From an uncultured Gammaproteobacteria bacterium (GTDB lineage: Bacteria; Pseudomonadota; Gammaproteobacteria; Steroidobacterales; Rariloculaceae), in assembly GCA_963817615.1 (NCBI GenBank), contig CAWFPH010000003.1, positions 30,718 through 94,717 of the forward strand: DNA of 64,000 bases. Reading direction: 5' to 3'. How positions within the stretch are numbered: position 1 is the first letter of the stretch; the number at the start of each line of letters is the position of its first letter. The translations under genes were made by a program, and so were the position numbers. This document shows, in pieces, positions 7,162 to 58,255 of the stretch. The notes under the pieces were generated by a model. It made no database searches. It saw nothing but the letters and a program-made list of their open reading frames with translations, and had not been told where the DNA came from.

Positions 7162-7453
7162 TTACCGCCGGCCGAACAAGCGCAGGTGCCTAACACCGGT
7201 CACGCGTTGCCTCACTCCCCCGCGCAGCCGCACCCGAGCACCAACCGCCGCTTTCCCCCCCGTTGCTATTCTTCTTTCGCCGGCTCATTCGTCCGGTCTT
7301 GGTGTTGCGTTTCGTTCTAATCGCATCGCGCCGCGCTGTCAAGCACGCGGCTCGGGAGCGGATTTCACGCGCGGCGCGCGGCTATACTGAGCTCGTCCGC
7401 GCTGCGATGCGTCGGTTCGAACGCAGCAGCCGCACGGGCGAAAGAGGGGTCGG

Positions 7454-14850: not shown

Positions 14851-14855
14851 GATAG

Positions 14856-16353: not shown

Positions 16354-16414
16354 CGGGATGAGCGGCGGCTAGGGACGGGAATTTTACATTTAAGAAGAAC
16401 GAGGAGAAGAAGCC

Positions 16415-16896: not shown

Positions 16897-16939
16897 CGCT
16901 CGCTGAGCGGTCCGCAATGACGGCCGACGGTCGGGGCCT

Positions 16940-18264: not shown

Positions 18265-18274
18265 AGTCCCCCCC

Positions 18275-21145: not shown

Positions 21146-21185
21146 CGCTCGGCGCGAAGCGGTTACCAAGAGAGGCGGCATAGTC

Positions 21186-23919
<2,734 letters not shown>

Positions 23920-30026: not shown

Positions 30027-30036
30027 GCGTCAGCCG

Positions 30037-31314: not shown

Positions 31315-31605
31315 TGGGCTCGTGCACGCGATTAAAGACGCTCCGCCCGATGCACGATGCGACGCGCACGTCTTTTGGTTTCCGATTCCGGATATGTCGG
31401 GCGAACAGTACTACTTCAAAGAAGCGGTACGTGCTTGGGTTGCGTACTCCGACAGAAGAAGGCAAAAAAGGAGAAGTTCGATATCTGGCATCCGGCTGAA
31501 GCCATCGGCGAAACGGCTGCAATGATCGGTATTGTCGTGCTCGCCGTGGCCGATGCGGTCTGCCGCAAGGGCAATGCGCCGGGAGGCGACATACTGGCCC
31601 CGTAG
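31310..31605 (+). pseudogene. remnant of the C-terminal third of a KAS-like gene (second copy)
   Basis: DGLVHAIKDA...DMSGEQYYFKEA...KKEKFDIWHPAEAIGETAAMIGIVVLAVADAVCRKGNAPGGDILAP* aligns with DGLTTAVKAS...DISGEQYYFKEA...RKEEFDLWHPAECIGESGALAGMPVVGLADAACRKRYAPGPNIVAH of 30037..31068. Lacks an N-terminus and has at least 2 frame changes. Confidence 0.6.
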
Positions 31606-31658
31606 ATCGAACGACAGCAGCCTGCGCGCGCCATCGGTTTGGCGCTGAGGATTTCCGA

Positions 31659-33840: not shown

Positions 33841-33943
33841 CTGATAATGCGAATGAGGATCCACGAATCGAAGACGTCTGCCGAGCGCTTCGTTGTCCCA
33901 ACTTGCGCCTATCTCGTGCTCGAAACCTGGAATGTTGAGCCCA

Positions 33944-35212
33944 ATGCCCCATCCCACAGCAGGATGTCCGATTCCGACTGTAGCCTCTCAGCACGCCGAG
34001 GAATCGGTGATCTTGCGCAATGTCCGCTCGGTCCTGGTGAACTCCGCGCACGTGCGGCTGCTGCACCTCCTCCGGCTCGACAACCGACTTGCTGCTCATC
34101 TCGATGGATTGGCGGTGACAGCCGAGTTTGGCTGGAGCGTGTGCGAGGCTCAACTTGACGTCCCGAGTATCGGTTCGCTATTCGTGGCGACACAGCGCGC
34201 TATCCAAGATGCCGACTCTTCGAGGCTCGAACGATTCCTTCGACTTGGAGAGACGGTATCGGTGCTGGAGCCAGGCCTTGTTTCGGCTTTCGGCTGGACA
34301 TCCGCACAATTCCTACGCGGCACGGTCAAGGCCCTGCTTGAATCCTCTACTACTTTCCGTCGTCGCGTCGGCATTTCCGCGTGCGCCATGCACGCAGTCC
34401 ACCCCGGTGCCCCTCTTGACGCAGCTCTGCGAGACCCTGACACTGCCCTACGTGCGCGCGCACTGCGCGCAATCGGCGAGCTCGGTAGGCTGGATTTGAG
34501 CACCGCCGTGCGGCGCGCAGTCGATGACCCCGACGAGACCTGCCGCTATTGGGCCGCGCGGTCCGCTGTTTTGCTCGGTGACCGCGGCAAAGGGCTCAAC
34601 CTGTTAATCGGCGGGTGTCGAGCACCGGGACCGTGTCGCGAGAGTTCGCTTCACCTTGCGCTACGTGCGATGGAGTTGCCTGCCGCGCGCGAGTTACTGC
34701 GCCTCATCAGCAGCGAGCCGAAAGACGTACGAGCACTCATCGAGGCCGCAGGCATCGTCGGCGATCCGCACTACGTGCCCTGGCTCATCAAGCAGATGGG
34801 CGACCCGAAGCTCAGCCGCCTCGCCGGCGAATCGTTTTCGCTCATCACTGGGCTCGATCTGGCGTATCTAGATCTCGATCGCCGCCCCCCCGAGGGCGAA
34901 GAGCTCGGACCGACGGCGGATCCAGACGACGAGAACGTCGCAATGGACCCGGATGAAGGGCTGCCGTTGCCCGACCCCGAAAAACTCGCCAAATGGTGGG
35001 AGGCGAACCGGCACGCATTCGCCGTCGGCACACGCTACTTCATGGGCCGGCCGCTCAGTCGGGAACACTGCCTGCAAGTGCTCAAAGAGGGTTTCCAGCG
35101 CCAGCGCGCTGCGGCCGCGCTCTATCTATCGTTGCTGCAACCGGGAACGCCGTTGTTCAACTGGCGCGCGCCGGCGTGGCGGCAGCAACGCTGGCTTGCG
35201 AGTATGCGTTGA
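33944..35212 (+). CDS. TIGR02270-family (HEAT-like repeat) protein, PA0101-like position
   Basis: ORF 33893..35212. The start is probably ATG 33944 (MPHPTAGCPIPTVASQHAEE...). LDNRLAAHLDGLAV and repeated D-P-D-x-x-x-R...A motifs are typical of this family. Intact. Confidence 0.7.
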   Translation: MPHPTAGCPIPTVASQHAEESVILRNVRSVLVNSAHVRLLHLLRLDNRLAAHLDGLAVTAEFGWSVCEAQLDVPSIGSLFVATQRAIQDADSSRLERFLRLGETVSVLEPGLVSAFGWTSAQFLRGTVKALLESSTTFRRRVGISACAMHAVHPGAPLDAALRDPDTALRARALRAIGELGRLDLSTAVRRAVDDPDETCRYWAARSAVLLGDRGKGLNLLIGGCRAPGPCRESSLHLALRAMELPAARELLRLISSEPKDVRALIEAAGIVGDPHYVPWLIKQMGDPKLSRLAGESFSLITGLDLAYLDLDRRPPEGEELGPTADPDDENVAMDPDEGLPLPDPEKLAKWWEANRHAFAVGTRYFMGRPLSREHCLQVLKEGFQRQRAAAALYLSLLQPGTPLFNWRAPAWRQQRWLASMR

Positions 35213-36445: not shown

Positions 36446-37798
36446 ATGCCGCTCGTGTTGCGAGTCTTGAGTTCGCAGAACCACACGACGGCTTTCGACG
36501 GCGCGAAGACCTTCGAGACGGACGGGACCATCGGCCGGACGGTCGACAACGATTGGGTGCTGCCCGATCCTGAACGTTTCATCTCGAGCCGCCACGCGGC
36601 GATCAGTTATGAAGGCGGGCGCTACTTCATCAACGATCGCAGCACGAACGGCATTGGCCGTCAACGGCCGCGAGATGGAGAAGGGCGGCCGTCTCGAGCT
36701 CAAGATCGGGCGACCACATGACCATCGGCGGCTATCAGATTGCCGTCTCGGTCGAGGGTCCGGTTGCGCCGGGGCCGATCGGCGCTGCATTCGCCTCGGC
36801 TCCTCCGCCGGCCTCGATCGACGACATTTTTTCGGACCCCAACCCTTTCGCGGCTACTCGCGAGGCGCCAATGCCTCGATCCGCTGGTGGCGCTCGGCGG
36901 CGCGGAAGGGCCGCGTCCCAGTGCCGCGCCGGCGCCGCGTACGGTGGACGATCATCCCGCGCGGAGTCGGAGTTCTTCGAGCCGCCGCGCATGATCAAAG
37001 CGCCGCCACCGGCCAGGCGGCCGGCAGAGATTCCGGAGGACTGGGACTCAACGGGCTTCTCGGCGGCCGCGGCCGGCTGCGCCCTCGGGCGCGCCGACCG
37101 AACCTCCCGCTCCGCCGCCCCCGCACGGCGCTTCGACGCCTCCCCCTGCGGACTGGGCCGCCGAGCAAACTCCGTCGCCGCCGCCGGCGAGAACGATGGC
37201 CTCCCCGGCACAGCCGGTCGATGTCTCGGGCTTGCTGCGGGCTGCGGGCATCGATCCCGCCGCGGCCGATCCAGCGCTAGTAGCGTCTCTCGGCGAGGTG
37301 CTGCGAGTCGTCGTCGAGGGCTTGATGGGCGTGCTCAAGGCGCGTGCGGAGATCAAGAATCAGTTCCGGGTTGCGATGACGACGCTGAAGCCGCTCGACA
37401 ACAACCCACTGAAGTTCTCCGTGGACGCAAACGACGCTCTGTTCAATTTGTTCGGAAGAAAAACAGCTAGTTTTCAGTCACCTGTAGATGCTTTCAGAGA
37501 TGCGTTCGAAGATCTAAAGGCGCATCAAATGGCAATGATGGCGGGTATGCGGGCGGCATTCACGGAGCTGATGGGGCGGTTCGATCCCGATCAGTTGCAG
37601 GAGGCTTTCGACCGCGGAATGAAGCGCGCTGCGATCCTCGATGTCATCAACCGGACGAAGTATTGGGACCTCTATCGAGAGATGTACAAATCGCTCGGCG
37701 ACGACGATTCGAGCTTCAGACGGCTGTTCGGCGACGAGTTCGCTCAGGCGTACGAGGAGCAGATGCAGCGTCTTACGGCGCTGCGCAGAAGGCGGTAA
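36446..37798 (+). pseudogene. tagH: Fha/TagH FHA-domain T6SS scaffold protein, 3-5 frame changes
   Basis: FHA core GTIGRTVDNDWVLPDPERFISSRHAAISYEGGRYFINDRSTNG, then AVNGREMEKGGRLELKIG, then HMTIGGYQIAVS, a Pro-rich linker with IPEDWD, and an intact C-domain (ORF 37196..37798). Changes near 36655, 36712, about 37065, and perhaps 36870 and 36960. Confidence 0.8.
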
Positions 37799-39719: not shown

Positions 39720-41026
39720 ATGACGGACGATCCTTTTTCCAGCGGCGAAGATCGAACGGTGTTGCGGCCGACGCCCGGCGGCAGGCGTCGAGAGGCTGCC
39801 GCGGCTCACGCCGCTGCTGCGGCGCCGGTGCGCTCGACACACGGCACGGCGCTACAGCGCATGGACGGATCGGACGTCAACCCGCTGACCGGTGCCGCTG
39901 CGCCGTTGCTCGCGCTGGCCGGTCAGCTGCGCAACACGATGAGCCATCCGGACCCCGAGGGCCTGTTTCGCCACGTCGCGCAGGAGATGAAGAACTTCGA
40001 GGCGGCGGCGGCGAAGCGCCGGAGTGCCGTCCGAGGCGGTGCTTGCGGCGCGTTACGCGTTGTGCACGCTGATCGACGAGGTCGTTCTCAATACGCCGTG
40101 GGGCAGCCAAAGTGCCTGGGCGAGCCAAACGTTGCTGAATCTATTCCACCGCGAAGGGTGGGGGGGAGAGAAGTTCTTCCAGATGGTCGATCGCGTGATG
40201 CAGCAGCCGGCCAGCCAACCTCGCGCTGCTGGAGCTGTTCTATCTCTGCATGGCCATGGGGCTCGAAGGCAAGTACCGCGTCGTGGCGGGCGGGCGGTCG
40301 ACACCTCGATACGCTGCAGACGAACGTCGCGCAGGCCATTCGGACGCAGCGCGGGGAATTCGAGAGAGAGCTCTCGCCGCATTGGCGGGGCGTGCAGGAT
40401 GCTCGCCCGAAGTTCGCGGAATACGTTCCGCTATGGACGGTTGCGGCGGCCGGCGTCGGCGTGCTGGTGTTGGTCTATTTCGCGTTTCTGTTCTTCTTGA
40501 ATCAGCGATCGGACCCCGTTACGCTCAGGTGGCCGCGCTCGGCCGCGAGGTGCCGCCGCTCGTGCAACGGCAAGGGTACGTCCAGCCACAAGCGCGCGCG
40601 GCTGCGCGATTGCTTGCGCCGCAGGCGAGGCAGGGCGCGCTCGAAGTGCAAGACCGCGGCGATACGGAGACCGTCATCCTGCGCGAAGGCCTGTTTCCGT
40701 CCGGCAGCGGCGAAGTGGACTCTGCGAAACTTCCGGTGCTCGAGGCCGTCGGCAATGCTTTGAACCGCCTGCCGGGTCAAGTCCTGATCACGGGCCATAC
40801 GGACAACATCCCGATCCGGAGTCTATTGTTCCCATCGAACTGGGCGCTTTCGAAACGACGCGCAGAGGCGGTGCGCGACATTCTCGCGCGATTCGTTCCG
40901 CCGCAGCGTCTGTCGGCGGAGCCGCGAGCCGACAGCGAGCCTCTGGTCGCGAACGACACGCCCGAGCATCGAGCGCTGAATCGTCGCGTCGAAATCACGT
41001 TGTTCTCGCTGCCGACGAGGGAGTGA
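39720..41026 (+). pseudogene. tssL: TssL (DotU) with C-terminal OmpA/MotB-like peptidoglycan-binding domain, about 4 frame changes
   Basis: DotU core (AARYALCTLIDEVVLNTPWGSQSAWASQTLLNLFH; LLELFYLCMAMGLEGKYR), TM helix (VPLWTVAAAGVGVLVLVYFAFLFF), and OmpA-like end (ITGHTDNIPI...NWALSKRRAEAVRDIL...NRRVEI). Changes near 40020, 40215, 40290, 40525. Confidence 0.85.
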
Positions 41027-41030
41027 AGAC

Positions 41031-44000
41031 ATGTTGAAGCTGCTCAAGAACCCTTGGCTGGTCAGGATTCCGGCCATGGTCGCTCGTGAGCGTGCTGATC
41101 TACGTGCTCGGTCCGTTGTTCGCGTTCGGACGCTATCGGCCGCTCGAGAGCGTCGAGGCACGCTACTTCGCGATCTTGATGGTCCTCGTTATTTGGCTCG
41201 TCCGTTTCGTGCTGAAGGCGCAACGTGCGGCGAACGCCGACAAGAAAATGGCGAACGCCATGGTCGCCGCGCCGATCACGCCTTTGCCGGCGGCCCCGGA
41301 CATGTCGGCGGAGGAGTTGAAGACGATTCGGGATCGCTTCGAGGAAGCGCTCGGTATCTTGAAGAAGTCTCGAGGCCGCAAAGGGCCGGCTCAGCCTTTA
41401 CGACTTCCTTGGTACATGATCATTGGCCCGCCGGGCTCTGGAAAAACCACCGCGCTCTTGAATTCCGGCTTGCGCTTTCCTCTCGCCGACCGGTTCGGCC
41501 CGGAAGCAATCCGCGGCGTCGGCGGCACGCGAAATTGCGATTGGTGGTTTACCGACGATGCGATCTTGATCGATACGGCGGGCCGATACACCACCCAGGA
41601 CAGCGATGCAAAGATCGATCAGGCGGGCTGGCTGGGGTTTCTCGATCTACTGAAGAAGCATCGCCGCCGCCGACCGATCAACGGGATTTTCGTCGCGATC
41701 TCCGTCGCCGATTTGCTAACGCAGTCCGAGCAGGAGCGTCGTGCGCAGGTGCTCGCCATCAAAGAGCGCGTCATGGAGCTCGACAAGCATTTCGGCATAC
41801 GCTTCCCCATCTACGTTTGTTCACGAAGTGCGATCTCGTCGCGGGCTTCACGGAGTTCTTCGAGGATCTTGGGCGAGGCGATCGAGAGCAGGTCTGGGGC
41901 GTCACGTTTCCGTACTCGGACGATGCGTCGGCGAGCCCCGCCGGCCAGTTCGGCGCGGAGTTCGATCGGCTGATTCGCCGTCTCAACGAGCGGCTGATCA
42001 GCCGTATCAGCCAAGAGCGCGACGTGCGCCGCCGCGGGCTGATTCACGGCTTCCCGAAGCAAATGTCGAGTCTGAGGGACGGCTTCACGTCGTTCGTCGG
42101 CGAGGTCTTCCAAAGCAGCCGCTACGAAACGAGCCCGCTGCTGCGCGGCGTCTATTTCACGAGTGGAACGCAGGAGGGTACGCCGATCGACCGGCTGATG
42201 AGCGTGCTCGCCAAGACGTTTCGCATCGATGCGCAGGCGTTGCCGCCGCAAACCGCGGCAGGCAAGAGCTTCTTCATCGCGGACGTGCTTCGGAAGATTG
42301 CGTTCGCCGAAGCGGGTCTGGCCGGAACGAATCGTCGCTTCGAGCTGCAACGCGCTTGGTTGCAGAAGGGGGCGTACGTCGGCGTGATGCGGGCTCGTTG
42401 CGTTGGCCGCCACTGCTTGGGTGTTCGCCTATTTCCACAATCGCGCGCTTCGTCGAGCGGGTCGGGGCGCAAGCGCGCCAGGCCCGCGAAGCGATCTCCG
42501 CAATCGACAATCGCGACTACGATCCGCTGTCGGTGCTTGCCGGCTCTGGACGCGGTTCGGCAGTTGCCGGGCGGCTATGCTGATCGTGAGCGCGGCGGCT
42601 CCTGGTTCGGCGATTTCGGCCTCTCGCAGCAGGACAAGATCGGCGACGCCGCCGTCGCTACTTACCGGCGGCTGCTCAATCAGTTGTTCCTCTCGAGAAT
42701 CATGCTGCGGTTGGAGGATCAGCTGCAGCGCGGCGGACCTACGCCCGACTACACTTACGAGGCGCTCAAGGCCTACCTAATGCTCGACTCACGTGAGCAC
42801 TACGATGCGGACGCGATCAAGGCGTTCGTGCAGCTCGACTGGGACACGAATCTGCAGCGCCAGGTGAGCACCGAGCAACGTCAGGCGCTTGCGGCGCATC
42901 TGAAAGCCACGTTCGAAGAACGGCCGTTGCCGTTGCCGTTGCCGCTCGATGATGCGGTGGTCGCGCAGGCGCGCCGCGACGTTCGGGCCATTCCACTCGA
43001 GGATCGGATCTACGGACGGTTGCGCCGCACGTTCCAGGGCGACGTCCCGGGCTTCAACATTCGCGACGCGGCGGGCGGCGCTACCGCCGAACTCGTCTTC
43101 GTCCGGAAGAGCGGTGCACCGCTCGCTCAAGCGCTCCCGCCGCTGTTCACCAAACAGGCGTATCAGCAGGTATTCGTCGCGAAGAGTCGCGAATTGACTT
43201 CGGAGCTTGCCGGTGAGTCGTGGATACTCGGCGACCAGCAGACCATCGATGCCGCCGAGCAGGAGCGCCTGCTCGCGCGCGTGCGCGAGCGGTATTTGGA
43301 CGAGTTCGCTCGTCTTTATAGCGACGCGATTCTCGACGTCGGCCTGGCGCCGTTCAACACGCCCGAGGAGGCTGCACGCATCTTCAATATCCTGTCGCGG
43401 CCGGAGGACTCGCCGCTCCTGTTGTTGCTGCAGGAGATCTCGCGGCAGACGTCGCTGGACAAGGTCGACGACAAGGGCGGGTTGGCTGCTCAGGTCGGCG
43501 GCAAGGTGACCCAGTTGCAGGAGCAGCTGAAGCAGGTGATCGGCGCGGCCGGTCAGGCACCGCAATCCCTGACCGACGCGCTCGTCCGCAACGGCGTCGA
43601 GCAGCGTTTCCGAGCGCTGAATGCGCTCGTGCAACCCGCCGCCGACGGCAAGCCGCGGCCGGTGGACCACTTGCTCGACCTGATGCGGCAGCTCTACCAA
43701 TACATGAGCGTTGTCGCGAGCGAGGCGGCCGGTGGTGCGATTCCGCCGCAGGTCCAGCAGCAAGGTCAGGCCGTGCTGCAACAGTTTCGCGCGGAGGCGC
43801 CGGCTCAGCCCAATATGCTCGTGGGCGATTTGCTGCAAACGGCCGCGGCCCGAACGGCCGCGCTCACGACCGGAGGATTGCGCGCTTACCTGAACGACCT
43901 TTGGCAGTCCGGGCCGCTCCAAGTGTGCCGCCAGGCAATCGCCAATCGATACCCGATCGTCCGCGGCTCGGAGCAGACCATCCGTCTCGACGACTTCGGC

Positions 44001-44589
44001 GCGTTCTTCGGCTACGGCGGCCAGATGGACCGGTTCTTCAACGAGCATTTGCGCCAGTACGTCGACGCAACGAGCCTCGCCGTGGCGCACGCGGCAGACC
44101 GGCAACGTGCCGATCCAGCTCTCGCAAGCGGCGCTGCGGGCGTTCGAGAACGCCGACGTCATCAAACAGACGTTCTTCCGGCCGGGCAGCATGATGCCGT
44201 CCGTTTCCTTCGACCTGCGGCCGCTCGAAATGGACCCGGGTCTCAGCCGGTTCCTACTGTCGCTCGAAGGCAAGGTGGTGGTCTACGAATTCGGACCGCG
44301 GACCTCGACGCTGATGCAGTGGCCCGGTCCCGAGCCGGGCACCGAGGTGCGGCTCGAGTTCCGTGACCGGCAGAACGGTCAGACCGCGATGGAGCGCGTC
44401 CAAGGACCCTGGGCGTGGTTCAGAGTGCTCGACAAGTCGCATCTCGCGCCGACCAACGTCCCCGAGCAATTCCAGGTCTCGTTCTCATCTGGCTCGCGCT
44501 CGGCTCAATACGAGCTCATCGCACGCAGCGCCTTCAATCCTTTCGCCCTGACGCAGCTGCAACAGTTCGAGTGCCCCGGTTCTCTCTGA
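41031..44589 (+). pseudogene. tssM: TssM (IcmF), about 6 frame changes
   Basis: ATG 41031 with a GGGAG SD. TM helices, Walker A GPPGSGKTTALLNSG, DTAGRY, and a long IcmF periplasmic domain ending FECPGSL*. Changes near 41082, 41818, 42385, 42445, 42540, 44075. Confidence 0.9.
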
Positions 44590-44590
44590 G

Positions 44591-46072
44591 ATGGCCGAGT
44601 TTGGCGTCCCGGGGTTTTTCGGCAAGCTCCCGTCGCGCGGCGACTTCGTCAGTCGGCGCTTGCCGCCCGAGTTCGTAACCGGCTGGGATCGCTGGCTTCA
44701 GGCCGCTCTTGCGGCCAGCGAAGCGAAGCTCGGCGAGCAGTGGCTCGACGTGTATCTGACGAGTCCAATTTGGTGCTTCGCCTTATCGCCGGGGATCTGC
44801 GGCGACGTCGGCTATGCGGGCGTGATGATCCCGAGCGTCGACAAGGTCGGCCGATACTTTCCGCTCGTCGCGGCGCTTCCATGTGGCCGCGCTGCGCCGT
44901 TGGTTGTGCGCCGCGAGCTCGCTGCCTGGTATGCCGAGGCACAAGACCTGCTGTTGGAGACACTTGCCGACCCGCCGCTCGATGTCGAACAGCTCGATGT
45001 ACGGCTCGCGAATCTCGGTGCAGTCGGCGAGGTCACGTCGCTCGAATGGACGCCGCCGGCGACGTTTGACGAGCCGCGATCGCTTGCTTGGCGGTTTCTC
45101 GTGGCGGGGGCCACCTCCGGCGAGCTCGATTCGGCTGTGCTGTCGAGCATAGTCGTTCGCGACTCCGGTCGCTGCGGCGTCTGGTGGACCGAGGGTTCGG
45201 AGCGCGTCGGCGACTGTGTGCTGGTCGTGCCGGGGCTTCCGACCCCCGCCGCATACGGAGCGATGCTCGACGGCGAGTTCGACCCGACGGAGTGGAGCTG
45301 CGGCGTACTGCACGCCGGCGCCGCGTCTGCCCCGCCGGGTCAGGCAGTGTCGTCGGCCGCGCGCAGCGACACGGGTAAGGTGCGTGCAATCAACGAGGAC
45401 TCGTTCGCATGCAGGGACGACCGCGGCGTCTGGCTCGTGGCCGACGGTCTGGGCGGCCACCAGGCCGGCGATCTCGCGAGCCGCATGGTCGCGAGCATTG
45501 CCGACCAGATGCCGGCGTCGGGAACGCTCGAGGATCTCGTCGAATGTCTGAGACGCAACGCGCGTGTCGTCAACGGCTGTCTGCGAGTGCTGGCGGAGCT
45601 CAGCTCGGAGGTCACCTCGACGGGAAGCACGCTGGCCGCGCTGATCGTGGCGCGATCGAGAGCAGCCGCACTCTGGGCCGGCGACAGCCGCGTCTACCGG
45701 CTGCGTGCTGGGCAGTTGCAACAGCTCACGCGCGACCACGCCGAAGAGGTCGATGGGTGGTCCGCCGCCGAGCCGCACAATCGCGCCGTGACGCGCGCCG
45801 TCGGCGGCTCCGACGATTTGAACATCGACGTAGTCTATACGGGAGTCCAATTCGGTGACCGGTACCTGCTCTGCACCGACGGCCTATACACGACGATCAA
45901 CGACTCGGACATCGTACGAGCGCTCTCTTTGGACTCCATCGAGCACGCTTGCGATGAGCTCCAGCGAATTGCGCTCGAAGGCACGGCGAGCGACAACGTG
46001 ACGGCGGTCATCGTCCACGTGGCGGGTACCGCAGAACGCGAAAACGCGCCGGAGGACGGCGCACATGGATGA
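44591..46072 (+). CDS. tagF-pppA: TagF-PppA fusion (TagF domain plus PP2C Ser/Thr phosphatase)
   Basis: Intact 493 aa. The N-terminus FFGKLPSRGDFVSRRLP...YLTSPIWCFAL is TagF. The C-half has PP2C motifs (RSDTGKVRAINEDS, VADGLGGH, GDSRVYR, CTDGL, SDNVTAVIV). Confidence 0.85.
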   Translation: MAEFGVPGFFGKLPSRGDFVSRRLPPEFVTGWDRWLQAALAASEAKLGEQWLDVYLTSPIWCFALSPGICGDVGYAGVMIPSVDKVGRYFPLVAALPCGRAAPLVVRRELAAWYAEAQDLLLETLADPPLDVEQLDVRLANLGAVGEVTSLEWTPPATFDEPRSLAWRFLVAGATSGELDSAVLSSIVVRDSGRCGVWWTEGSERVGDCVLVVPGLPTPAAYGAMLDGEFDPTEWSCGVLHAGAASAPPGQAVSSAARSDTGKVRAINEDSFACRDDRGVWLVADGLGGHQAGDLASRMVASIADQMPASGTLEDLVECLRRNARVVNGCLRVLAELSSEVTSTGSTLAALIVARSRAAALWAGDSRVYRLRAGQLQQLTRDHAEEVDGWSAAEPHNRAVTRAVGGSDDLNIDVVYTGVQFGDRYLLCTDGLYTTINDSDIVRALSLDSIEHACDELQRIALEGTASDNVTAVIVHVAGTAERENAPEDGAHG

Positions 46073-47891
46073 GCGCATTTCTTCTGTCGAACGTTTCCTG
46101 CGCGGCGAGCTCACGCTCGCCGACCTCGAGCCGATTCTGCGGTCGGCCGCCACGTCGCAGGCTGCCGGGGACAGTGCCGCGGTTGCGCGCTACCTAGACG
46201 AGCTCTATCAGTCCGGCCGGCTGCCGTTGCAAGTCCATGCTTCGCTGATGGCGGCGGTTGCGGTCTCCGCGGACGGCACGGTGCGGCGTCACGCTGCCGA
46301 GCAGCAAGCGGCAGATTCGACGCGGATCGGCTCCCCGCCGGAGGAGCGTACGCGGATGGCGGCCTCCGGGCCGCACACGCCCGTTCAAGCAGCCTGGGAG
46401 CCGACGCGTGTCCGGCTGCCAGACGGGCAAAGCCACGTCGAGCCCGCGATCGATTCCACGCGCGTTCGGCGACCGGAGACGGCCGAGGAGAGCCTGCGCT
46501 GGCAGACATCGGTGGTCGAGCGCACGGCCGGCCCGGGTGCGGCGACGATGCCGACGTCGACTGGATCGAACTGGGCGCACCCCGAGCAATGGACGCAGCG
46601 ACACGAAGGACCACTCGGCCCAGGCTCGGTGATCAAGGAGCGGTTCGTATTGGAGTCCGTGCTAGGTCAGGGAGGCATGGGCGTCGTCTACAAGGCGCTC
46701 GACCGCCGCAAGCAGGAGGCGCGCGACCGCGATCCGTACGTCGCGCTCAAGATTCTCAACGAGGAATTCCGCCAACACCCCGATTCCCTCATCGCGTTGC
46801 AGCGCGAGGCCGTCAGAGCGCAGACGCTGTCACATCCGAACATCATCAACGTGTTCGATTTCGATCGCGACGGCACCGTCGTGTTCATGCCGATGGAGCT
46901 GCTCGAAGGCCAGCCGCTCAACCGCCTGATCTCTGCGAACAAGACGGCCGGCGTCGCCAAGGAACGAGCCGTGGCGTTGATTCGCGCAATGACCGAGGCG
47001 CTCGCGTACGCGCACAAGAAGGGGATCGTGCATTCGGACCTCAAGCCGAGCAACGTGTTTTTGACGCGCACCGACGAGATCAAAGTGCTCGACTTCGGAA
47101 TCGCGCGCGCGGTGACCACGGATCTGCGGCCGGCGGCGGACGACACGGTGTTCGATGCGGCCAAGCTCGGTGCGCTGACACCCGCGTATGCGAGCGCGGA
47201 AATGCTACGCGGAGAGCCGCCGCTTCCGGCGGACGATGTGTTCGCGCTCGGAGTCATTGCGTACGAGCTTTTGAGCGGTCGTCATCCGTTCGATCGTGAG
47301 CCGGCAGACGCCGCTCGCATGCGCGGGTTGACTGCCGCGCCCCTCACCGGCGTCACGCGCCGTCAGCGCAAGGCAATCGCCAAGGCGCTATCGCTCGAGC
47401 GGTCCGACCGTCAACCCGACGCGCGTTCGTTCCTTCGCGAATTCGAGGGCCCGACGCCGATTCGCAAGTCCGTCTACGCAGCGATCGGCGTCTTGGCCAT
47501 CGCGCTGCTCTACGCGCTTTATCTCAATTTGCAGGTCAGGCCGGACGTTCCGTTCGAAAGTCTGTCGACGCAGGACCAAGAGCGCTTTCTCGACGCCGTC
47601 GCGCACGGCGACGCCGCCCTGCGGATCGGTGACACGACGTTGGACGATGCGCTCGAAGCCTACTCCACGGCGTATGAGATACATCGAAACAATCCGGCTG
47701 CCATTGCAGGGCTCGAAGAGGTCGCGAAACGTACTCTCGCGGCCATGGCAGTGAACGACCACAACCAGCAGGAACGCGCTGTCCGGCGTCTTTTTTGCCA
47801 GGAGTACTTGTCCACGTATAGGCCGGTGGTGCGCGCTTGCGAGGCCGTGCACGGTGCGCCGTGCTCGGCCCAAGCCATGCGCTGCGACTGA
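46065..47891 (+). CDS. ppkA: Hanks-type Ser/Thr kinase (PpkA-position), atypical architecture
   Basis: Intact 608 aa, with an 8-nt overlap with the preceding gene. The kinase domain is central (GQGGMGVVYKA, VALKIL, HSDLKPSNVF, DFGIAR) and follows an N-terminal extension of about 190 aa. One TM helix (VYAAIGVLAIALLYALYL), then a C-terminal domain of about 110 aa. Confidence 0.85.
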   Translation: MDERISSVERFLRGELTLADLEPILRSAATSQAAGDSAAVARYLDELYQSGRLPLQVHASLMAAVAVSADGTVRRHAAEQQAADSTRIGSPPEERTRMAASGPHTPVQAAWEPTRVRLPDGQSHVEPAIDSTRVRRPETAEESLRWQTSVVERTAGPGAATMPTSTGSNWAHPEQWTQRHEGPLGPGSVIKERFVLESVLGQGGMGVVYKALDRRKQEARDRDPYVALKILNEEFRQHPDSLIALQREAVRAQTLSHPNIINVFDFDRDGTVVFMPMELLEGQPLNRLISANKTAGVAKERAVALIRAMTEALAYAHKKGIVHSDLKPSNVFLTRTDEIKVLDFGIARAVTTDLRPAADDTVFDAAKLGALTPAYASAEMLRGEPPLPADDVFALGVIAYELLSGRHPFDREPADAARMRGLTAAPLTGVTRRQRKAIAKALSLERSDRQPDARSFLREFEGPTPIRKSVYAAIGVLAIALLYALYLNLQVRPDVPFESLSTQDQERFLDAVAHGDAALRIGDTTLDDALEAYSTAYEIHRNNPAAIAGLEEVAKRTLAAMAVNDHNQQERAVRRLFCQEYLSTYRPVVRACEAVHGAPCSAQAMRCD

Positions 47892-47959: not shown

Positions 47960-47988
47960 TTGACATCCAATTTGTCGAGCATTAGTGT
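47960..47988 (+). promoter_or_regulatory. sigma70-type promoter candidate for the 48.0-55.4 kb operon
   Basis: TTGACA (47960-47965), 17-nt spacer, TAGTGT (47983-47988), within a locally AT-richer stretch. Confidence 0.4.
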
Positions 47989-48034
47989 GCTTGGGCCGAA
48001 CAAACAAAAATCCAAACCGCGGGCCACTTCTCCC

Positions 48035-49666
48035 GTGAACCCCTTACTGCCACAGCGCGTTGCCGCCCTCGTCGGGGCCGCCGTTGCCCTGCTGCCGCTG
48101 ACGCTGCTCGCGCAAAAGGCGCAGGACGCCGCGCGCGAGGGTTACACGGCCGTTCAGGATTTGCAGATTGTCGACTGCTTGTTGCCCGGGCAAGTGCGGG
48201 TGGTCGGCGGTCGCACCTATCTCACGCCCCGACGGCCTGCGCGCACGACCGCAGCCAATTGCCGGAGCGCCGGTGGCGAATACCTCGATTACGATCGCGC
48301 GGACGCCAAGTCCGCATTGAACGTTTGGATGGCCGCCGCCCAGAGCGGCGATGCAGAAGCCCAAACGAACGTCGGCGAGATCTACGAGCGCGGGACCGGT
48401 GCGCAACCGGACTACCAGGCTGCCGCCGTATGGTACCGAAAGGCCGCGGAGCAGAATTACCGGCGCGCGCAGTACGACCTCGGCGCTTTGTACGAGCGCG
48501 GCTTGGGCGTGCCGGCGGACCCGCTCGAGGCGTTGAATTGGTACCGTCGCTCGTGGGGGCTACCCGCCGATTCGGTGATCTGGAAGACGGCGGCGACCGC
48601 CGAGGAGGAGAAGCTCAGGTCGGATCTTAAGACCCAGATCGCGCAGCAAGACAAAGAGATTACAACGCTGCGCGAGCAGGTCGACGAGCTCACCAAGAAG
48701 CTCCGCGCGGAGGGCAAACAGGCGTCGGACCAGATCGACGTGCTGAACGGGCTCGTCGCTCGCCTCACGCAGACGCGGGACGCGGATTCCGCGCGGCTCG
48801 CGGATCTCCCGCCGCCGGCCGGCGCCGCGCCGCCCGCCGAAGGCAAGTTCACGGATCGCGAAAGCCGTACGTATCACCAAAAGGATTTCGGGCGCTTCTT
48901 CGCATTGATCATAGGCGTTCAGGATTACGACAAGCTCGAGCCGTTGTCGTCGCCGTTGAGCGATATCGCGAAGCTCAAAGCCGTGCTCGAGAACCGCTAC
49001 GGGTTCAGCGTGAAGGCACTGCCGAATCCGACGAATCTCGCGCTCATGTTGGCCGTCAACGAGCTCAGCTGCGGGGACGACAAGAAGGGGAAGGACGCGA
49101 ACGAGCATTCGTGCCTCCGGGACTCCGACAATTTGTTGATCTACTTCACCGGTCGGGGGAGTCGCTTGCATAGCGGGGAGACGGAGACGGGTTATTGGCT
49201 TCCCACAAATGCCGATCAGCCGCCGAACGATACGCTTTGGGTGCCGAATGATTTCATCACGCGACACCTTGGGCGCATTGCGGCGAAGCGCGTGCTCGTT
49301 ATCTCCGACTCTTCCTATGCCGATCTGCTCGCCTCCGAGCCCGGGCTGCTGATGGTAGGCGACGGCCGCTACGGCGACGATTACATTCAGTACAAGTTGC
49401 CGAAGCGGTCGCGATTGCTGTTGGCTTCAGGAGGCGATCAGCCGGTCCCCGACGGCGGAGCCGACAACGAGTCCGTCTTCGCTCATGCCTTGCTGACCGT
49501 GCTGCAGACCAACGATCAGGTGCTCACCGCGCCCGAGCTGTATCTGCGAGTTCGCGACCAACTCAAGCGATCGCAGTCCTCGTCGGCAAGTATCAAGGAG
49601 CCGGAGCTCAAAGCGATCAAAGCCGCCGGACACGAAGTCGGTGATTTCTTCTTCGTACCGGGTTGA
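48035..49666 (+). CDS. secreted Sel1-repeat / coiled-coil / caspase-like (peptidase C14 fold) protein with substituted catalytic dyad
   Basis: ORF 47837..49666 trimmed to GTG 48035, giving signal peptide (M)NPLLPQRVAALVGAAVALLPLTLLAQ. Sel1 repeats (AQTNVGEIYERGTG...AAVWYRKAAEQ...AQYDLGALYERGLG), a coiled coil, then a caspase-like block FALIIGVQDY...LLIYFTGRGS...VLVISDSSYA. Confidence 0.75.
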   Translation: MNPLLPQRVAALVGAAVALLPLTLLAQKAQDAAREGYTAVQDLQIVDCLLPGQVRVVGGRTYLTPRRPARTTAANCRSAGGEYLDYDRADAKSALNVWMAAAQSGDAEAQTNVGEIYERGTGAQPDYQAAAVWYRKAAEQNYRRAQYDLGALYERGLGVPADPLEALNWYRRSWGLPADSVIWKTAATAEEEKLRSDLKTQIAQQDKEITTLREQVDELTKKLRAEGKQASDQIDVLNGLVARLTQTRDADSARLADLPPPAGAAPPAEGKFTDRESRTYHQKDFGRFFALIIGVQDYDKLEPLSSPLSDIAKLKAVLENRYGFSVKALPNPTNLALMLAVNELSCGDDKKGKDANEHSCLRDSDNLLIYFTGRGSRLHSGETETGYWLPTNADQPPNDTLWVPNDFITRHLGRIAAKRVLVISDSSYADLLASEPGLLMVGDGRYGDDYIQYKLPKRSRLLLASGGDQPVPDGGADNESVFAHALLTVLQTNDQVLTAPELYLRVRDQLKRSQSSSASIKEPELKAIKAAGHEVGDFFFVPG

Positions 49667-49715
49667 AGCTTCGTTGCCACTCGAGAACGACTTCAGTGAC
49701 AAAGGAACGATAGTC

Positions 49716-51383
49716 ATGCCGAAGCGACGGGACACGGGTTCTGGCCAATTTCTCGAGAGCCTGGCGGCGCTCGCATGCGGACGAGGACCGGGTGCGTGCG
49801 GCGACACTGTGCGCCGGCAGGGGTTCGCGCGATCGCTGCGCGTGCGCGCGGTGCCGATAGCGCTCGCGGTCTGCTGCGCGAGCGTCGCATTTGCCCAGAC
49901 CAACCAGGGTAATTTGGGGCCGGGTCTGAACGGGCTGACTTACGAGAACGAGATCGAACGCGGCGCGGCGGCGGCAAACGAGGTTGTGTTTCGCTCGCTC
50001 GACAGCGACTGCAACCCGAACGGTGTGCTCGACCGGCTGCCGGCGCCTCAGTACAGCGACATCGTGAACCCGGGGCCAAGCTGCACGCAGGACACGTTCT
50101 TCGTTTATCTGAATTCCCGGGAGTTGTTCGAGACGGCAAACGAGCTGCAAGACCAAGGACCGACGGTCGCGAGCCTCGGGCTCGATCAAACGGGATTGGG
50201 GTTGGCTCTGCGGTGGACCGCGGCGGAGGAGATCGCGGCGTTGGGGTCCGCCGCCACCAAGTTCGCGAATAGCCAAATGTCGACGCTCGCGGCGCGGCTC
50301 ACGGCGTTGCGTTTCGGCGCGACCGGTTTTCAGACGGCGGCGTTCTACGATCGGCTGCGCGGCGAATCGCCGTTGCTCGCGCAGAACGGTGATGCACCGG
50401 CTGCGGAGACGAACGGGGAGAAATACAGCCCGTGGGGCGGCTTCCTGAATTACGGTTTCGGCTACGGTGAGAAGGCGCCGACTGCGCTCGAGGACGCGTT
50501 CGACTTCGACGGCTCCGAGACCACGCTCGGAGTCGATTATCGGCTTCGCAGCAACCTCGTGTTGGGAGGCGTCGTGGGGCTGTCGCGGCAAAGAATCGAT
50601 TTCGACCCGGCCGCGAGCGCGATCAGCGTAGTGGATGGCAACGTCAAAACGGACGGCAACAGCTTCATGGTTTTCGCGCTTGCCCAAGGCAAGCGGATGA
50701 CGATCAGCGGCTCGTTGGGCACGCAAACGCTGGACTATGCAGTGGAGCGCAACATCCAGTACCCGTCCTTCAACCCGAACACGCCGAGCGTGTACTCGGT
50801 CGCGAACAGCAAACCGAGCGCAGACGTCAACACCGCTAGTTTCTCGTTCAGCTACGCCTTCACGTGGGGTAAGTTCACGTTGGAGCCGCTCCTGAACGTG
50901 GACCGGCTCGATGTCACGATCGGCTCGTTCGCGGAGCAGCGCAGCATCAACAAGCTCAGTGCGCAGAATGTCAGTCGTCGCTTCGATCTCGTCGTATCGC
51001 GGCAGGACATCGAGAGCTTGAAGACGTCGGTCGGCGCCAGGTTCCAGTACGTGGTGACGCCAAGGTTCGGCGTGATCGTGCCGTACTGGAGCGTGGCCGG
51101 CTATCACGAGTCGCGCGACGGTTCGCGCACGATCACGGCAGGCTACGCTGCGCTCGCCAACATACTCGGGAGCACGACCTTCGCCCTGCCGACCGATGCT
51201 CCGGACAAGCAGTACCTCATGGCGGCCGCGGGGGCGTCTGCGGTGCTGCGGGGCGGGCGTCAGCGCAAGGCGGGCGGCCCGATCGCCGGCGGCGCGTCGG
51301 GTTTTCTGCAGTTCCAGACGGTCAAGGATCTACAGAACTACACCGACAACGTGCTAACAGCCGGTTTCCGTTACGAGTTTTGA
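49716..51383 (+). CDS. autotransporter-type outer-membrane beta-barrel protein
   Basis: ORF 49641..51383 trimmed to ATG 49716 (AAGGAA SD). Signal peptide ...AVCCASVAFAQ, a passenger of about 230 aa, alternating beta-strand pattern, and a C-terminal GFRYEF. Confidence 0.75.
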   Translation: MPKRRDTGSGQFLESLAALACGRGPGACGDTVRRQGFARSLRVRAVPIALAVCCASVAFAQTNQGNLGPGLNGLTYENEIERGAAAANEVVFRSLDSDCNPNGVLDRLPAPQYSDIVNPGPSCTQDTFFVYLNSRELFETANELQDQGPTVASLGLDQTGLGLALRWTAAEEIAALGSAATKFANSQMSTLAARLTALRFGATGFQTAAFYDRLRGESPLLAQNGDAPAAETNGEKYSPWGGFLNYGFGYGEKAPTALEDAFDFDGSETTLGVDYRLRSNLVLGGVVGLSRQRIDFDPAASAISVVDGNVKTDGNSFMVFALAQGKRMTISGSLGTQTLDYAVERNIQYPSFNPNTPSVYSVANSKPSADVNTASFSFSYAFTWGKFTLEPLLNVDRLDVTIGSFAEQRSINKLSAQNVSRRFDLVVSRQDIESLKTSVGARFQYVVTPRFGVIVPYWSVAGYHESRDGSRTITAGYAALANILGSTTFALPTDAPDKQYLMAAAGASAVLRGGRQRKAGGPIAGGASGFLQFQTVKDLQNYTDNVLTAGFRYEF

Positions 51384-51446
51384 AGTGCTTGAGCAGCCAA
51401 GGACGCAGAGCCTGGAATCAAGAAGAGCAAGAAGGACAAGCGACCG

Positions 51447-54400
51447 ATGAATGAGCGGAAGTGTGGTTTCGTGTTCATGCTGGTCTGCGCGGTTGGCCTT
51501 GCGGCGGCCGGGTGCAGCAGCGGTTCCGGCGGCAGCAAGGTCGGCAAGCAGACGAATTCGCCGCCGGTCGCGCGCGCCCTAGTGCTCAACAGCGGGGACA
51601 GCAACACGGTGCGGGAAGGCGCGGAGGTGCTCCTGAGCGGGCGCGACAGCGATGACGCCGACGGCCCCGTGCTGACATGGGAGTGGACGGCGCCGCCGGG
51701 CGTCGACCTCGTGACTCGGTCCAAGACCACCGTGAGCTTCACTGCTCCGCACGTGGACGCGCCGACCACGCTGACGTTCTCGTTGAAAGTGACCGATGCG
51801 GACTTCACGAGCGCCACGACCAACGATCGACGTGCAAGTGGTGCCGGCAGACGATCAAAACCTATTTCTCGAGACCAGCGCGGCGGACCAGCCGGCCCCC
51901 GACCGATTTTCGGTAACGGCCGCGCTGCGACCCCGAGAAACGGCCGGGCTTTTGGATGGCCCGTTCACGGTATCGCTCAAAGCCACCGTTACCTATCTGA
52001 ATCGCGCGAACGGCCAGGAAACGGTCGACCTCGACGTGCCGGCGTTCGCGACGCCGATCTCGGGCGTTTGGCGAGCCAATGAGACGATCACTTGCACAGC
52101 GGGCCAAGCCGAAACGGACTGTATGCGCGCGTCATTCGTCAATCCCCACTACGAGTTTCAGGTGCCGCGTCTCGATATCGCCGACCTGAACCAGCGTTTT
52201 CTGGCGTCCGGTGAGCTCGATCGACAATTGGACCCGGATCGTGCCGACACGGCCGTCGTCCAGATCACGGCGACCCTCGACGCCGCCGAACTGCAAGACA
52301 AGGCGAGGCTATTGATCTCGACGGGCAACACCGTCATTGCGGAGTCGCCGGGCGCGATCATCGGCGTTGCCGACTCGGTGATGCTTTCGGCCGACACGCT
52401 GTTGGCCGGCATTGGCGGGGAAGAGCATCGCGATACCGCCGATGCCTACTATCGCACGATAGATCCGCAGAATCGTCGCACGACGTTGAACGATTGGCTG
52501 TTCCTAGCGGGCTTCGCTCAGGACAACAAGGGCAGCTTGAAGCCGGACGCCGTCAGTGGAGTGGGCGAGTTCGCGCACGCGAAGTACACCAACAACTTCG
52601 ACCTCGGGTTCGGCCGCGACATGTATATGCGAACCGACCCGTCGGGAGACGTGTATGCGTTCGTAGTGAACTACCCGACGCTCGAGGCGGCGATCAAGAA
52701 CATCGACAACTTCGTTGCCGTCGTAATGGAATTCACGCCGCCGGACGATACGGCGCTCGAGGCGAGCTGCGCTACCAAGGGTCGATTCGTAAAGTTCCTC
52801 ACGTTCGTGCCGGACAATTCCGGCAATGCGCCGCGTGTGGGTTCGATGAACTTCGACGGGCGCGGTGAGCGTTACACGCCGGGTAATTGCATTGCTTGTC
52901 ACGGCGGCGACGTCGCGAATCTCGACCAACTTGTCGCCGCCGGCAACTCGAACCAGATGGTTTATCGGAACTGCGGAGATACCAACGCCGCTTTCATGCT
53001 CTGGGACCTGGATTCGTTCTTGTACAGCGACACCGATCCGGCAATCGCGAACGGCGTGCCGAAATTCGGCGGTGCGAGCCTTTTGGACGAAACGGATCCG
53101 GCTCATAAGTATTCCAGGCAGGCTCAAGAGGAGCAGTTCCGCAAGCTCAACGCCGGTGCTTTGCAAACTTACGAGACGTTCGCGACCGAAGGCGGCGATC
53201 CGAATCGCGTCGCGGCGGCGATGGCGCTCGTGCATGGCTGGTATCACGATCGAACGACGGTAGCCGGGACGCCGTTCGATGGCACTTATACGCCGGACGG
53301 TTGGAACACCTCGCCCGCGGTGGCAGACGCGTATCAGAACGGCTTCGCGCGCTATTGCCGCGCGTGCCACACGATGCTTGCCGACAGCAGCAAGCACTTC
53401 GACAGCTACGACAACTTCACGATCGACCCCATGAGCCAGACCCCGCGTGATCTCGAAGACATCGTCTATCGTCGCGGTGTCATGCCGCTCGCGCGGCTGT
53501 CGATGGACCGCTTCTGGGTGCCCTTTCATGGCACCGCCGTGCCGGCCGAGACGTTGGCGAACGTGCTCGCAGCGGATATCGGACTCGATCCGACTGCGCG
53601 CCCCGGCGCGCCCGTATTCCAGATTACACGTACGCCGGATCCGGCCAAGGAACGCGACATCGTGCGATTGAACGCAGCCGACAGCGCGTTCGTTCGCTCG
53701 CCGCAATGGACCGCACTCGCGAGCACGGCTAACGGCGCCTGCGAGCAACCCACGCTATCGGGTGCGAACACGATGGAGGTTGCATTCCGTGCGGCGACGC
53801 CGGGGCACTATTGCATCCAACTCGCGAGCGGGGCGAGCTCGCGGGTCGAGGAATTCGATGTCAACGCAGACGCTCCGCCGGTGCGCGTTCAGAAGACCGC
53901 GTTGACAATAGACGAGAACGCCGGGCCGACCGCCATCGATCTCGAATACAGCGATGCGGACGATCCGCCGGCGAATCTCGTCTATTCGCTTGTCAGTGCG
54001 TTGAACGGGACGGTGAGTCTCAACGGTGTTGCTCTCGCATCGGGCGACACCTTCACGCAGCAGCAAATCTCTGCGGGGCTTGTGCGTTTCAAGCCAAGCC
54101 TAGGCGGCGTGAACCTCGCGGCAGGTGTGCTCGTCGATGGCGGCTTGGACTACACGCTTACCGATGGGATCACCGTGCTCGGACCGCCCGCGCTGCAATA
54201 CCGCGTGAACATTCTCGGCGTAAACGACGGGCAACCGACCGTGACCGTTTCACCGGTCACCGCATCGCAGCTCGTGTTCGGCGGCAACGTGTCGATTGGC
54301 GCCAGCAGAATCAGCGCGAGCGATCCAGACACCGCTGCGGCCGGTCTGACGGTATCGATCTCCGTAGCGGGGACTCCCGCCGGCACGGTCACGCCGGCGT

Positions 54401-54906
54401 CCTTGACTTATCAGCAGATACTGAACGGGTCTTCGTTCACGTATCACCACCTTGGAGCTTTCCCGATCGACCTCAGCGATCAGCTGCAGGTGGTTGTGAG
54501 TGACGGAACGAACACGAGTAGCCCCGTACCGCTTGCGGTGACCGCGCGAGTCTCGTTCGCGCAGAACGTCATCCCGGTGATGACGAGCGCCACCGGTAAC
54601 GCCGACACCAACAGCTGCATGTCTTGTCACTCGACCGCGGGTCCGGGGCCCGCTTTTGGCACCGGCACCGGGCCCTACACGGTCACCTATACGGCGGTGG
54701 ACAATGAGGTCGTCGGCACGTTGCCTGCAGGTGAACCCGCATGCAATGCCACGCCGGGTACGGCCGCGAGCGCGCTGCTGCGCAGGCCGAGCGGCTTGGA
54801 TGGGCATAGCGGGGGAGTTCGTGCCGGATTCGGCCTCAATGGAAATCTGAATAACTACGAGCTGTTCAGGACTTGGATCTGCGGCTTCGGAGCCGGCAAC
54901 AACTGA
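51447..54906 (+). pseudogene. large lipoprotein (about 1150 aa) with PKD-like and cadherin-like domains and three CxxCH motifs, 1 frame change
   Basis: Lipobox LAAAGC. The PKD-like N-domain (ORF 51447..52082) joins ORF 51796..54906 after a change near 51812 (...FTSATTN | IDVQVVPADDQ...). Motifs CIACHG, CRACHT, CMSCHS. Confidence 0.7.
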
Positions 54907-54929
54907 CGGCGAGCGCGGAGGTTTCACGA

Positions 54930-55445
54930 GTGACGATTCGAGTAGTCGCCATGCCGAGGATCACCTGGGGGCTCTTCCGGACCGTTTCGTCGATCCCTGA
55001 CACGACGGAGGAAGCACAGATCGCGCCCGAGCTGCCGGCGGTGAACGGCTTGCGACCTCAGCGGACTGCTGCCGGCAGTTTTCGTCTGCCTTCGTTCACA
55101 TTGCACGTCGGCCTGAACCGCTCGAAGACCATGGTCCTGCGCACGGCCAACAAGACGGCGGACCTTCTCAAGCACGAGCAGGGTCACTACAACTTGCTCG
55201 TGCTCGTAAGCCGGGCGTTTGCGCGCGACCTCGAATCACTCGAAGCGGCGTCCGTCGCCGAGCTCGGTACGCTGTTGAGCACCGCTCGCGACACCCACGA
55301 CGATCGTGCCCAGGCCATCGATGCGAAGTACGACAGCGAAACCGACCATAGCCGGAACCGCGCCGCGCAGGCGCGCTGGGACAATGCGATCGTCGCCGCG
55401 CTTGCGCAGGCTCGGTGCGATGCGATCGCGAACCTGCCGCTCTGA
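54930..55445 (+). CDS. DUF922-like putative Zn-dependent protease
   Basis: GTG 54930 with GGAGG 8 nt upstream (alternative ATG at 54951). ITWGLF... and LLKHEQGHYNLL (an HExxH motif) match my recollection of DUF922. Lies 24 nt after the lipoprotein stop. Confidence 0.55.
   Translation: MTIRVVAMPRITWGLFRTVSSIPDTTEEAQIAPELPAVNGLRPQRTAAGSFRLPSFTLHVGLNRSKTMVLRTANKTADLLKHEQGHYNLLVLVSRAFARDLESLEAASVAELGTLLSTARDTHDDRAQAIDAKYDSETDHSRNRAAQARWDNAIVAALAQARCDAIANLPL

Positions 55446-56429: not shown

Positions 56430-58251
<1,822 letters not shown>

Positions 58252-58255
<4 letters not shown>

Follow-up and report, generated by a model that had tools for sequence, protein, structure and literature searches.

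A Hanks-type kinase, a caspase-fold protein, an autotransporter and a giant lipoprotein form an undescribed envelope gene set that occurs repeatedly at type VI secretion clusters

The DNA analysed in this study is a window of 64,000 nucleotides (nt) of contig CAWFPH010000003.1 (assembly GCA_963817615.1), from an uncultured gammaproteobacterium, and coordinates given without the name of another locus are positions in this window. On its plus strand, directly after a tagF-pppA fusion gene of a type VI secretion system (T6SS) cluster and the gene of a Hanks-type protein kinase (K), lie four co-directional genes, g1 to g4, which encode a secreted Sel1-repeat protein with a caspase fold (g1, here C), an autotransporter (g2, B), a giant lipoprotein (g3, L) and a DUF922 protein (g4). 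An earlier inspection of the letters, the sequence-only reading, had described g1–g4 as four tightly spaced genes of an envelope operon directly downstream of ppkA. The open reading frames (ORFs) are present, with gaps of 49, 63 and 23 nt when the starts chosen in that reading are used; the gap between g3 and g4 becomes 44 nt if g4 begins at the ATG at 54951 rather than at 54930. All of the domains named there, that is, Sel1 and caspase in g1, an autotransporter in g2, PKD and cadherin domains with CxxCH motifs in g3, and DUF922 with an HExxH motif in g4, were recovered by Pfam and motif searches, and a protein kinase gene is indeed found at the place given for ppkA (46065–47891, plus strand, encoding 608 amino acids (aa); Pfam Pkinase, 1.5e-41).

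Comparison with other genomes establishes that the conserved unit consists of K, C, B and L, with B and L as its core, and that g4 lies outside it. The comparative sample comprised 80 species-level loci from a genome scan for g3 homologues, and the neighbourhoods of g3 homologues were inspected as well. The proteins of the window served as queries against these loci; some counts were made on 87 loci, and 53 loci formed a subset with full flanks. The B gene is directly upstream of the L gene, on the same strand, in 74 of the 80 loci, and both K and C are present in 41. In the full-flank subset, 35 loci have both K and C, three have one of them and 15 have neither; the genes are often adjacent or overlapping. 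Clustering of the ORFs over the 80 loci added no other conserved partner to K, C, B, L and the T6SS genes; the remaining large ORF clusters looked like antisense ORFs, as judged by strand and coordinates only. K, C, B and L constitute an undescribed envelope gene set, present in many environmental bacteria and located repeatedly beside or inside T6SS clusters.

Linkage to T6SS was counted within 10 kb of the g3 homologues, and the ClpV-like matches of one locus (L028), which may be ClpB, were left out. T6SS genes are linked in this sense in 17–18 of the 80 loci. These are scattered over several clades of the g3 tree, and at least five gene orders are seen among them. With M standing for tssM, F for tagF-pppA, and a, b and c for tssA, tssB and tssC, these orders are M-F-K-C-B-L in the window, M-F-K-B-L-C-a-b-c, in which the module is embedded, K-C-B-L-a-b-c, B-L convergent on C-K-F-M, and M-F-B-L-b-c without a kinase in L081. 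In around five loci the module or the B-L pair is situated between the tssM-tagF/pppA side and the tssA-tssB-tssC side of the cluster, and wherever a T6SS-linked locus has a kinase, K comes directly after tagF-pppA. That the linkage recurs, in rearranged forms, speaks for a functional connection with T6SS in some lineages. Co-occurrence of the four gene families with one another and with T6SS loci, which the sequence-only reading had put forward as a check on its proposal, is largely borne out for g1–g3, T6SS loci included, but not for DUF922. As an additional feature of L081, which belongs to Povalibacter, a TPR-methyltransferase gene (7059–8300 of that locus, minus strand) was noticed between tagF-pppA and B-L.

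The kinase domain of K occupies residues 196–416, and its catalytic motifs are intact (VALK226, HSDLKPSN323 and DFG343). It is followed by a single hydrophobic segment (around residues 469–489) and then by a periplasmic C-terminal domain of about 118 aa that contains four cysteines. PpkA of Pseudomonas aeruginosa carries a periplasmic von Willebrand A domain; Pfam recognised no such domain in K, and no match at all beyond the kinase domain. The C-terminal domain is kept in 30 loci, T6SS-linked and unlinked alike, and this persistence regardless of linkage indicates a kinase family that is defined by the module. A word-indexed search with the C-terminus gave eight fragmentary matches on tiny contigs that offered no gene context. 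By context K is PpkA. Its start overlaps by 8 nt the tagF-pppA fusion (44591–46072, plus strand; a TagF N-domain, Pfam TagF_N 8e-44, joined to a PP2C phosphatase, PP2C_2 4e-11), which is the last T6SS regulatory gene ahead of it. The expected substrate, again by gene context, is Fha, the C-terminal part of whose gene is located at 36995–37798 on the plus strand (Pfam T6SS_FHA_C, 9e-58), and phosphorylation of Fha by K is accordingly termed putative here.

Two further observations concern the kinase genes. In the window's K, the kinase domain is preceded by an N-terminal extension of about 190 aa (46065–46634) that is common to only two of 87 loci, namely L016, which has a PP2C gene directly upstream, and L018, which is T6SS-linked. 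In L001, the closest unlinked relative, a gene with an FHA domain (Yop-YscD_cpl plus FHA; 1–824 of that locus) and a Trans_reg_C/TPR regulator gene (858–2486) are present a few kb upstream of K, and these are possible non-T6SS outputs of the kinase.

The C gene (48035–49666, plus strand) encodes a secreted protein of 543 aa with Sel1 repeats (Pfam Sel1, 5e-18), a coiled coil and a caspase fold. The last is assigned with a Peptidase_C14 match of 6.7e-15 and 55.8 bits, against a cut-off of 21.4, and in comparisons with the PDB, Sel1 proteins match C down to 1e-50. In the alignment, the His-Cys catalytic dyad that is kept in 44 of 46 relatives (GHG/DSC) is absent from the window's protein, which has GRG/DSS, that is, His replaced by Arg and Cys by Ser. 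The g1 homologue of the T6SS-linked Woeseiaceae locus L018 (7196–8353 of that locus) has also lost the dyad and shows Arg and Thr in its place. Judged from these sequences, the two losses suggest a recurrent, scaffold-only state of C. Bacterial metacaspases and orthocaspases (Peptidase C14) share the fold of C, and relatives of C retain their His-Cys dyad; C differs from them in being periplasmic, in its fusion to Sel1 repeats and a coiled coil, in its linkage to a kinase, and, in the window, in lacking the dyad.

The B gene (49716–51383, plus strand; 555 aa) matches the Autotransporter family (Pfam PF03797, 7e-28), and, as modelled by AlphaFold2 (AF2), its product is a genuine type Va autotransporter. 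In the model, a long signal region is followed by a helical passenger of about 100 aa, and a long helix occupies the pore of a 12-strand barrel. The overall predicted local distance difference test score (pLDDT) is 79.6, and the barrel and passenger are mostly above 90. Foldseek matched the model to EstA (2e-15) and NalP (6.5e-11), and also to AaaA and EspP. B resembles these type Va proteins (EstA, AaaA and NalP) in its signal region, N-terminal passenger, pore-spanning helix and 12-strand barrel. However, its passenger has only about 100 residues, is helical throughout and gave no match to any known domain of an enzyme or adhesin, and its gene is nearly always paired with that of a giant lipoprotein. 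A second autotransporter barrel gene (14844–16370 of that locus) was seen downstream of g3 in L089, an unlinked Simiduia locus.

The L gene (51447–54906, plus strand) encodes an outer-membrane lipoprotein, as indicated by Pfam, motifs and the lengths of its homologues. The sequence-only reading had given it about 1150 aa; joining the frames does yield 1152 aa, within the 1140–1200 aa of intact relatives, but there is no single open frame, since the frame switches near 51825 between 51447–52082 and 51796–54906. From its N-terminus, L contains a lipobox cysteine (Cys23), a PKD domain (K319L-like, 9e-9), a central domain of around 600 aa with two CxxCH motifs, cadherin-like repeats (Cadherin_3, 2e-13) and a class-I cytochrome c domain with a third CxxCH; the Cytochrome_CBB3 match of this last domain (4e-6) is borderline, at 27.6 bits against a cut-off of 27. 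The CxxCH motifs are at residues 481, 637 and 1057; both of those in the central domain are invariant, the third reaches a conservation of at least 90%, and these conserved haem-attachment motifs lead us to predict that L bears haem. The lipobox cysteine is also invariant, as are many residues between positions 330 and 700.

The central domain of L has no Pfam or NCBIfam model. Residues 128–760 were modelled by AF2 with high scores (pLDDT 91.2; predicted template modelling score 0.91), and a Foldseek search of the PDB with the central-domain model returned no match with an expectation value (E) below 0.01. A profile of L compared with the PDB matched only the PKD and cadherin domains and, weakly, the iron oxidase FoxE (6e-4) at the C-terminal cytochrome domain. 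The central-domain family is large, comprising 1131 clusters at 50% identity when matches with E up to 1e-3 are included.

The fourth gene, g4 (54930 or 54951 to 55445, plus strand), has an HEQGH motif and matches DUF922 (Pfam PF06037, 6.9e-7; 29.9 bits against a cut-off of 27) over profile positions 82–152 of 153, that is, the C-terminal half; no signal peptide was evident by eye. Its inclusion in a four-gene unit did not survive the comparison, as DUF922 was found in just one of 87 loci. In that locus (L067; 5314–5781, minus strand, 46% identity) the DUF922 gene follows clpV at the end of a T6SS operon and converges on g3. It is possible that T6SS of this type have DUF922 as an accessory gene or as a cargo gene. 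The clpV gene of L067 is 85% identical to that of the window over the fragment compared.

A promoter-like site, TTGACA-17-TAGTGT (47960–47988, plus strand), is located in the 143-nt gap between K and g1. The relaxed pattern TTGACA-N16-18-TANNNT has this one match in the window, against 0.05 expected, and five of 100 shuffled sequences reach one match. The sequence-only reading had called the site a near-consensus promoter. It is present as written, but it agrees with the consensus at nine of 12 positions in total and at three of six in the -10 hexamer, and a sigma-70 scan of 44–58 kb reported no promoter, the site failing the scan's -10 criterion. Furthermore, the K gene and g1 overlap or abut in relatives, which means that a promoter between them is not conserved.

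The T6SS cluster of the window, found to be complete by Pfam scans, extends from 13 to 48 kb and includes tssA, tssB, tssC, tssE, tssF, tssG, tssJ, tssK, tssL, tssM, clpV, vgrG, DUF2169, a PAAR-like Tox-GHH2 effector gene, fha and tagF-pppA. Together with g1–g4 (about 12200–55500) it has a G+C content of 0.58–0.66, compared with 0.67–0.73 in the flanks, and the G+C content at third codon positions (GC3) is 0.75–0.80 in g1–g4, like that of the T6SS genes (0.72–0.82 for the block) and compared with 0.84–0.90 in the flanks. The lower G+C content of the block suggests an island that was acquired horizontally and ends just before pgl-edd-eda. Many long genes are split over two or three frames, namely tssC (14856–16353), tssF (18248–19132), clpV (21117–23742), vgrG (26292–28359), DUF2169 (29004–30261), tssM (40980–44589) and the housekeeping gene edd (56430–58255), and from these split genes we estimate an apparent indel density of about one per 3–4 kb. 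Because nearly all of the long genes in the window are frame-split, the presence of one frameshift argues only weakly for a pseudogene here.

We tentatively favour the reading that K, C, B and L are a trans-envelope sensing module for a Hanks-type kinase, wired in this genome into the threonine-phosphorylation pathway of the T6SS; it is from gene neighbourhood that we infer function, and with it the physical interactions, the direction of signalling and the signal. B would sit in the outer membrane as an autotransporter and present a small helical domain that is conserved, and L would be a haem-bearing lipoprotein on the outer membrane whose array of Ig-like domains could span the periplasm. 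Because the B and L genes abut or overlap, we propose that the two proteins are made in fixed proportion. C may act as a periplasmic adaptor or protease, with its Sel1 repeats for binding, its coiled coil for oligomerisation and its caspase domain, and would inform the kinase, at its short periplasmic domain, of the state that the B-L complex is in; in the window, where the catalytic dyad is lost, C would be a scaffold only. In this genome, with K translationally coupled to tagF-pppA inside a complete T6SS cluster that includes Fha, the output would be phosphorylation of Fha, followed by release of T6SS assembly. The module would thus be a functional analogue of TagQRST, RtkS or TssW, which perform this task in other bacteria. 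As for the signal, the three conserved c-type haem sites suggest a redox or small-ligand signal, and the PKD and cadherin domains point to contact with a surface or with cells. It is plausible that the module is a new trigger for T6SS, although the window's copy looks partly degenerate. A bolder version, which we consider rather doubtful, holds that this is a new class of trans-envelope device in which B and a periplasm-spanning, tri-haem L with a core of new fold sense redox state or contact at the outer membrane and signal through a periplasmic caspase-type protease to the kinase, and that it was recruited in several lineages to license T6SS firing; on this version it would be the third or fourth independent T6SS trigger, after TagQRST, RtkS and TssW.

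Inputs encoded beside ppkA are known. TagQRST and RtkS are outer-membrane or periplasmic inputs of this kind (PMC6653060), as is TssW, which binds both TssM and PpkA (PMC12607579), and the known accessories of T6SS include outer-membrane lipoproteins that have a role in contact (PMC13584744). The sequence-only reading had likened g1–g4 to TagQRST in logic though not in sequence, and the likeness holds in so far as envelope genes stand beside a kinase together with Fha, PP2C and TagF; it fails in that the module is not T6SS-specific. In the window tagF-pppA, K and g1–g3 are contiguous, and T6SS_FHA_C is encoded in the cluster. Like TagQRST-PpkA-Fha1-PppA of the P. aeruginosa H1-T6SS, the module places an outer-membrane lipoprotein and a periplasmic partner beside the kinase (PMC6653060, PMC13584744). 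The two are not related in sequence or in domains, however. An autotransporter, a caspase-fold protein and haem sites are additional in the module, its kinase has no recognisable von Willebrand A domain, and in most cases no T6SS is adjacent. Pfam found no TagR-type FGE-sulfatase-like domain (COG1262) in g1–g4 or in the scanned ORFs of the T6SS cluster, and, over the ORFs scanned between 12 and 55 kb, no ABC_tran or permease domain of the TagS/TagT type. TssW-PpkA-Fha of Acidovorax citrulli and RtkS of Serratia marcescens are comparable in that an accessory encoded beside ppkA acts through the periplasmic side of PpkA on T6SS initiation or positioning; judged by their descriptions, each is a single protein of unknown fold, whereas here there are three proteins with defined and different domains.

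Lipoproteins functionally coupled to outer-membrane barrels also occur elsewhere. In RcsF-OmpA/C/F, a small, haem-free lipoprotein paired with a barrel reports the state of the envelope to an inner-membrane signalling protein, and in MtrB-MtrC a lipoprotein c-type cytochrome, a decahaem wire, is coupled to a 26-strand porin. The module differs from both in its 12-strand barrel and three widely spaced haem motifs. Porin-cytochrome conduits (Mtr/Pcc) in general combine multihaem cytochromes, with eight or more haems, and a porin of 20–26 strands; L and B, with three CxxCH motifs in 1152 aa and 12 strands, do not conform to this pattern.

The view that the locus is not a described system is upheld: NCBIfam has no model for g2, g3 or g4, no TagR-, TagS- or TagT-type domain is present, and our literature searches retrieved no description of a K-C-B-L module. 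A 2026 review of T6SS accessory factors makes no mention of an autotransporter, caspase, cytochrome or Sel1 protein (PMC13584744). An anti-phage defence system was also considered and rejected, PADLOC giving generic kinase matches, one weak caspase match (4.5e-4) and nothing for g2–g4.

Several observations weigh against a sensing module that acts on the kinase and the T6SS. The commonest architecture is B-L alone (28 of 80 loci), so that the pair works without K and C nearby. About three-quarters of the loci have no T6SS gene within 10 kb, among them the window's closest relatives (L001, L004 and L008; 54–60% identity) and all of the Cellvibrionaceae and Kangiellaceae loci. Two T6SS clusters, L081 and L086, contain B-L with no kinase in the flanks, so that a kinase-independent link to T6SS is possible. 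In the window itself C is catalytically dead and L is frameshifted, and this local copy may not work as its relatives do. Finally, haem-loaded L cannot pass through a 12-strand barrel, which makes the topology of L uncertain. The unlinked majority indicates that the module is not a T6SS-specific accessory, and, since most loci are unlinked, the gene called ppkA is a member of a kinase family that is constantly partnered by g1 rather than by T6SS. The module appears to have T6SS as one of its outputs.

Some of the same facts would fit an autonomous outer-membrane redox or adhesion complex of B and L, such as a c-type cytochrome enzyme at the surface or in the periplasm that has a barrel of its own. 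It would be regulated or processed by K and C, and its proximity to T6SS would reflect shared regulation or co-transfer in an island rather than signalling into T6SS. Besides the frequency of B-L alone, the three haem motifs and the large conserved central domain look enzyme-like, the C-terminal domain of L has its weak match to FoxE, the family is large and mostly without a T6SS link, and the window's module is part of a low-G+C island. Hitch-hiking, however, hardly explains why several diverged loci have the module, in varied gene orders, embedded between core operons of the T6SS. K also directly follows tagF-pppA in all of the T6SS-linked loci that have the kinase, and three haems over 1150 aa and a 12-strand barrel are unlike known electron conduits. 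We consider this alternative unlikely.

Still less probable, in our view, is that the proteins are not a signal sensor but structural, positioning or target-contact accessories of the T6SS. They would then anchor it at the outer membrane, as TssW or TagV do, or serve as a contact or adhesion lipoprotein of the kind of TasL, TslA or TagM1. The kinase-less T6SS clusters with B-L (L081 and L086) and the adhesion-type PKD and cadherin domains of L would agree with such a role, for which contact-type outer-membrane lipoproteins (PMC13584744) and TssW, bound to TssM and PpkA (PMC12607579), provide precedents. Against it, most B-L loci lie away from T6SS genes, the co-variation of K and C with the module does not depend on T6SS, and Pfam and NCBIfam searches detected no homology to the listed Tag and Tss accessory proteins. 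That the window's operon is a decaying remnant with no current function, as the altered g1 dyad and the g3 frameshift might imply, is very improbable, because the g3 break is most simply an assembly indel like those in nearly every other long gene, g1, g2 and K are intact, full-length frames with coding-type GC3, and the dyad-less C beside an apparently intact T6SS in L018 suggests a tolerated, scaffold-only state.

Activators of PpkA are known for few organisms (TagQRST, RtkS and TssW), and the trans-envelope sensing module preferred here is a candidate input made of entirely different parts. Its carriers include the culturable and genetically testable Povalibacter, Steroidobacter, Marinobacter, Simiduia, Cellvibrio and Aliikangiella. 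The individual components are also of interest: L represents a large unannotated family with a confidently predicted fold that is absent from the PDB and with two invariant haem sites, the obligate pairing of a classical autotransporter with a lipoprotein is unusual, and C is a case of a caspase-fold protein in the periplasm that has a genetic tie to a Ser/Thr kinase.

Some neighbouring genes were noticed as well. In the unlinked Cellvibrionaceae locus L088, a gene for a cadherin/He_PIG repeat protein of 1662 aa (15178–20166 of that locus) stands beside the kinase gene. In the window, the PAAR-like toxin gene with a Tox-GHH2 (HNH/EndoVII nuclease) domain occupies 31500–32831, downstream of vgrG and DUF2169. 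About 1 kb past it, with one unannotated ORF between, is a HEAT-repeat gene (33857–35212) that could encode an immunity protein.

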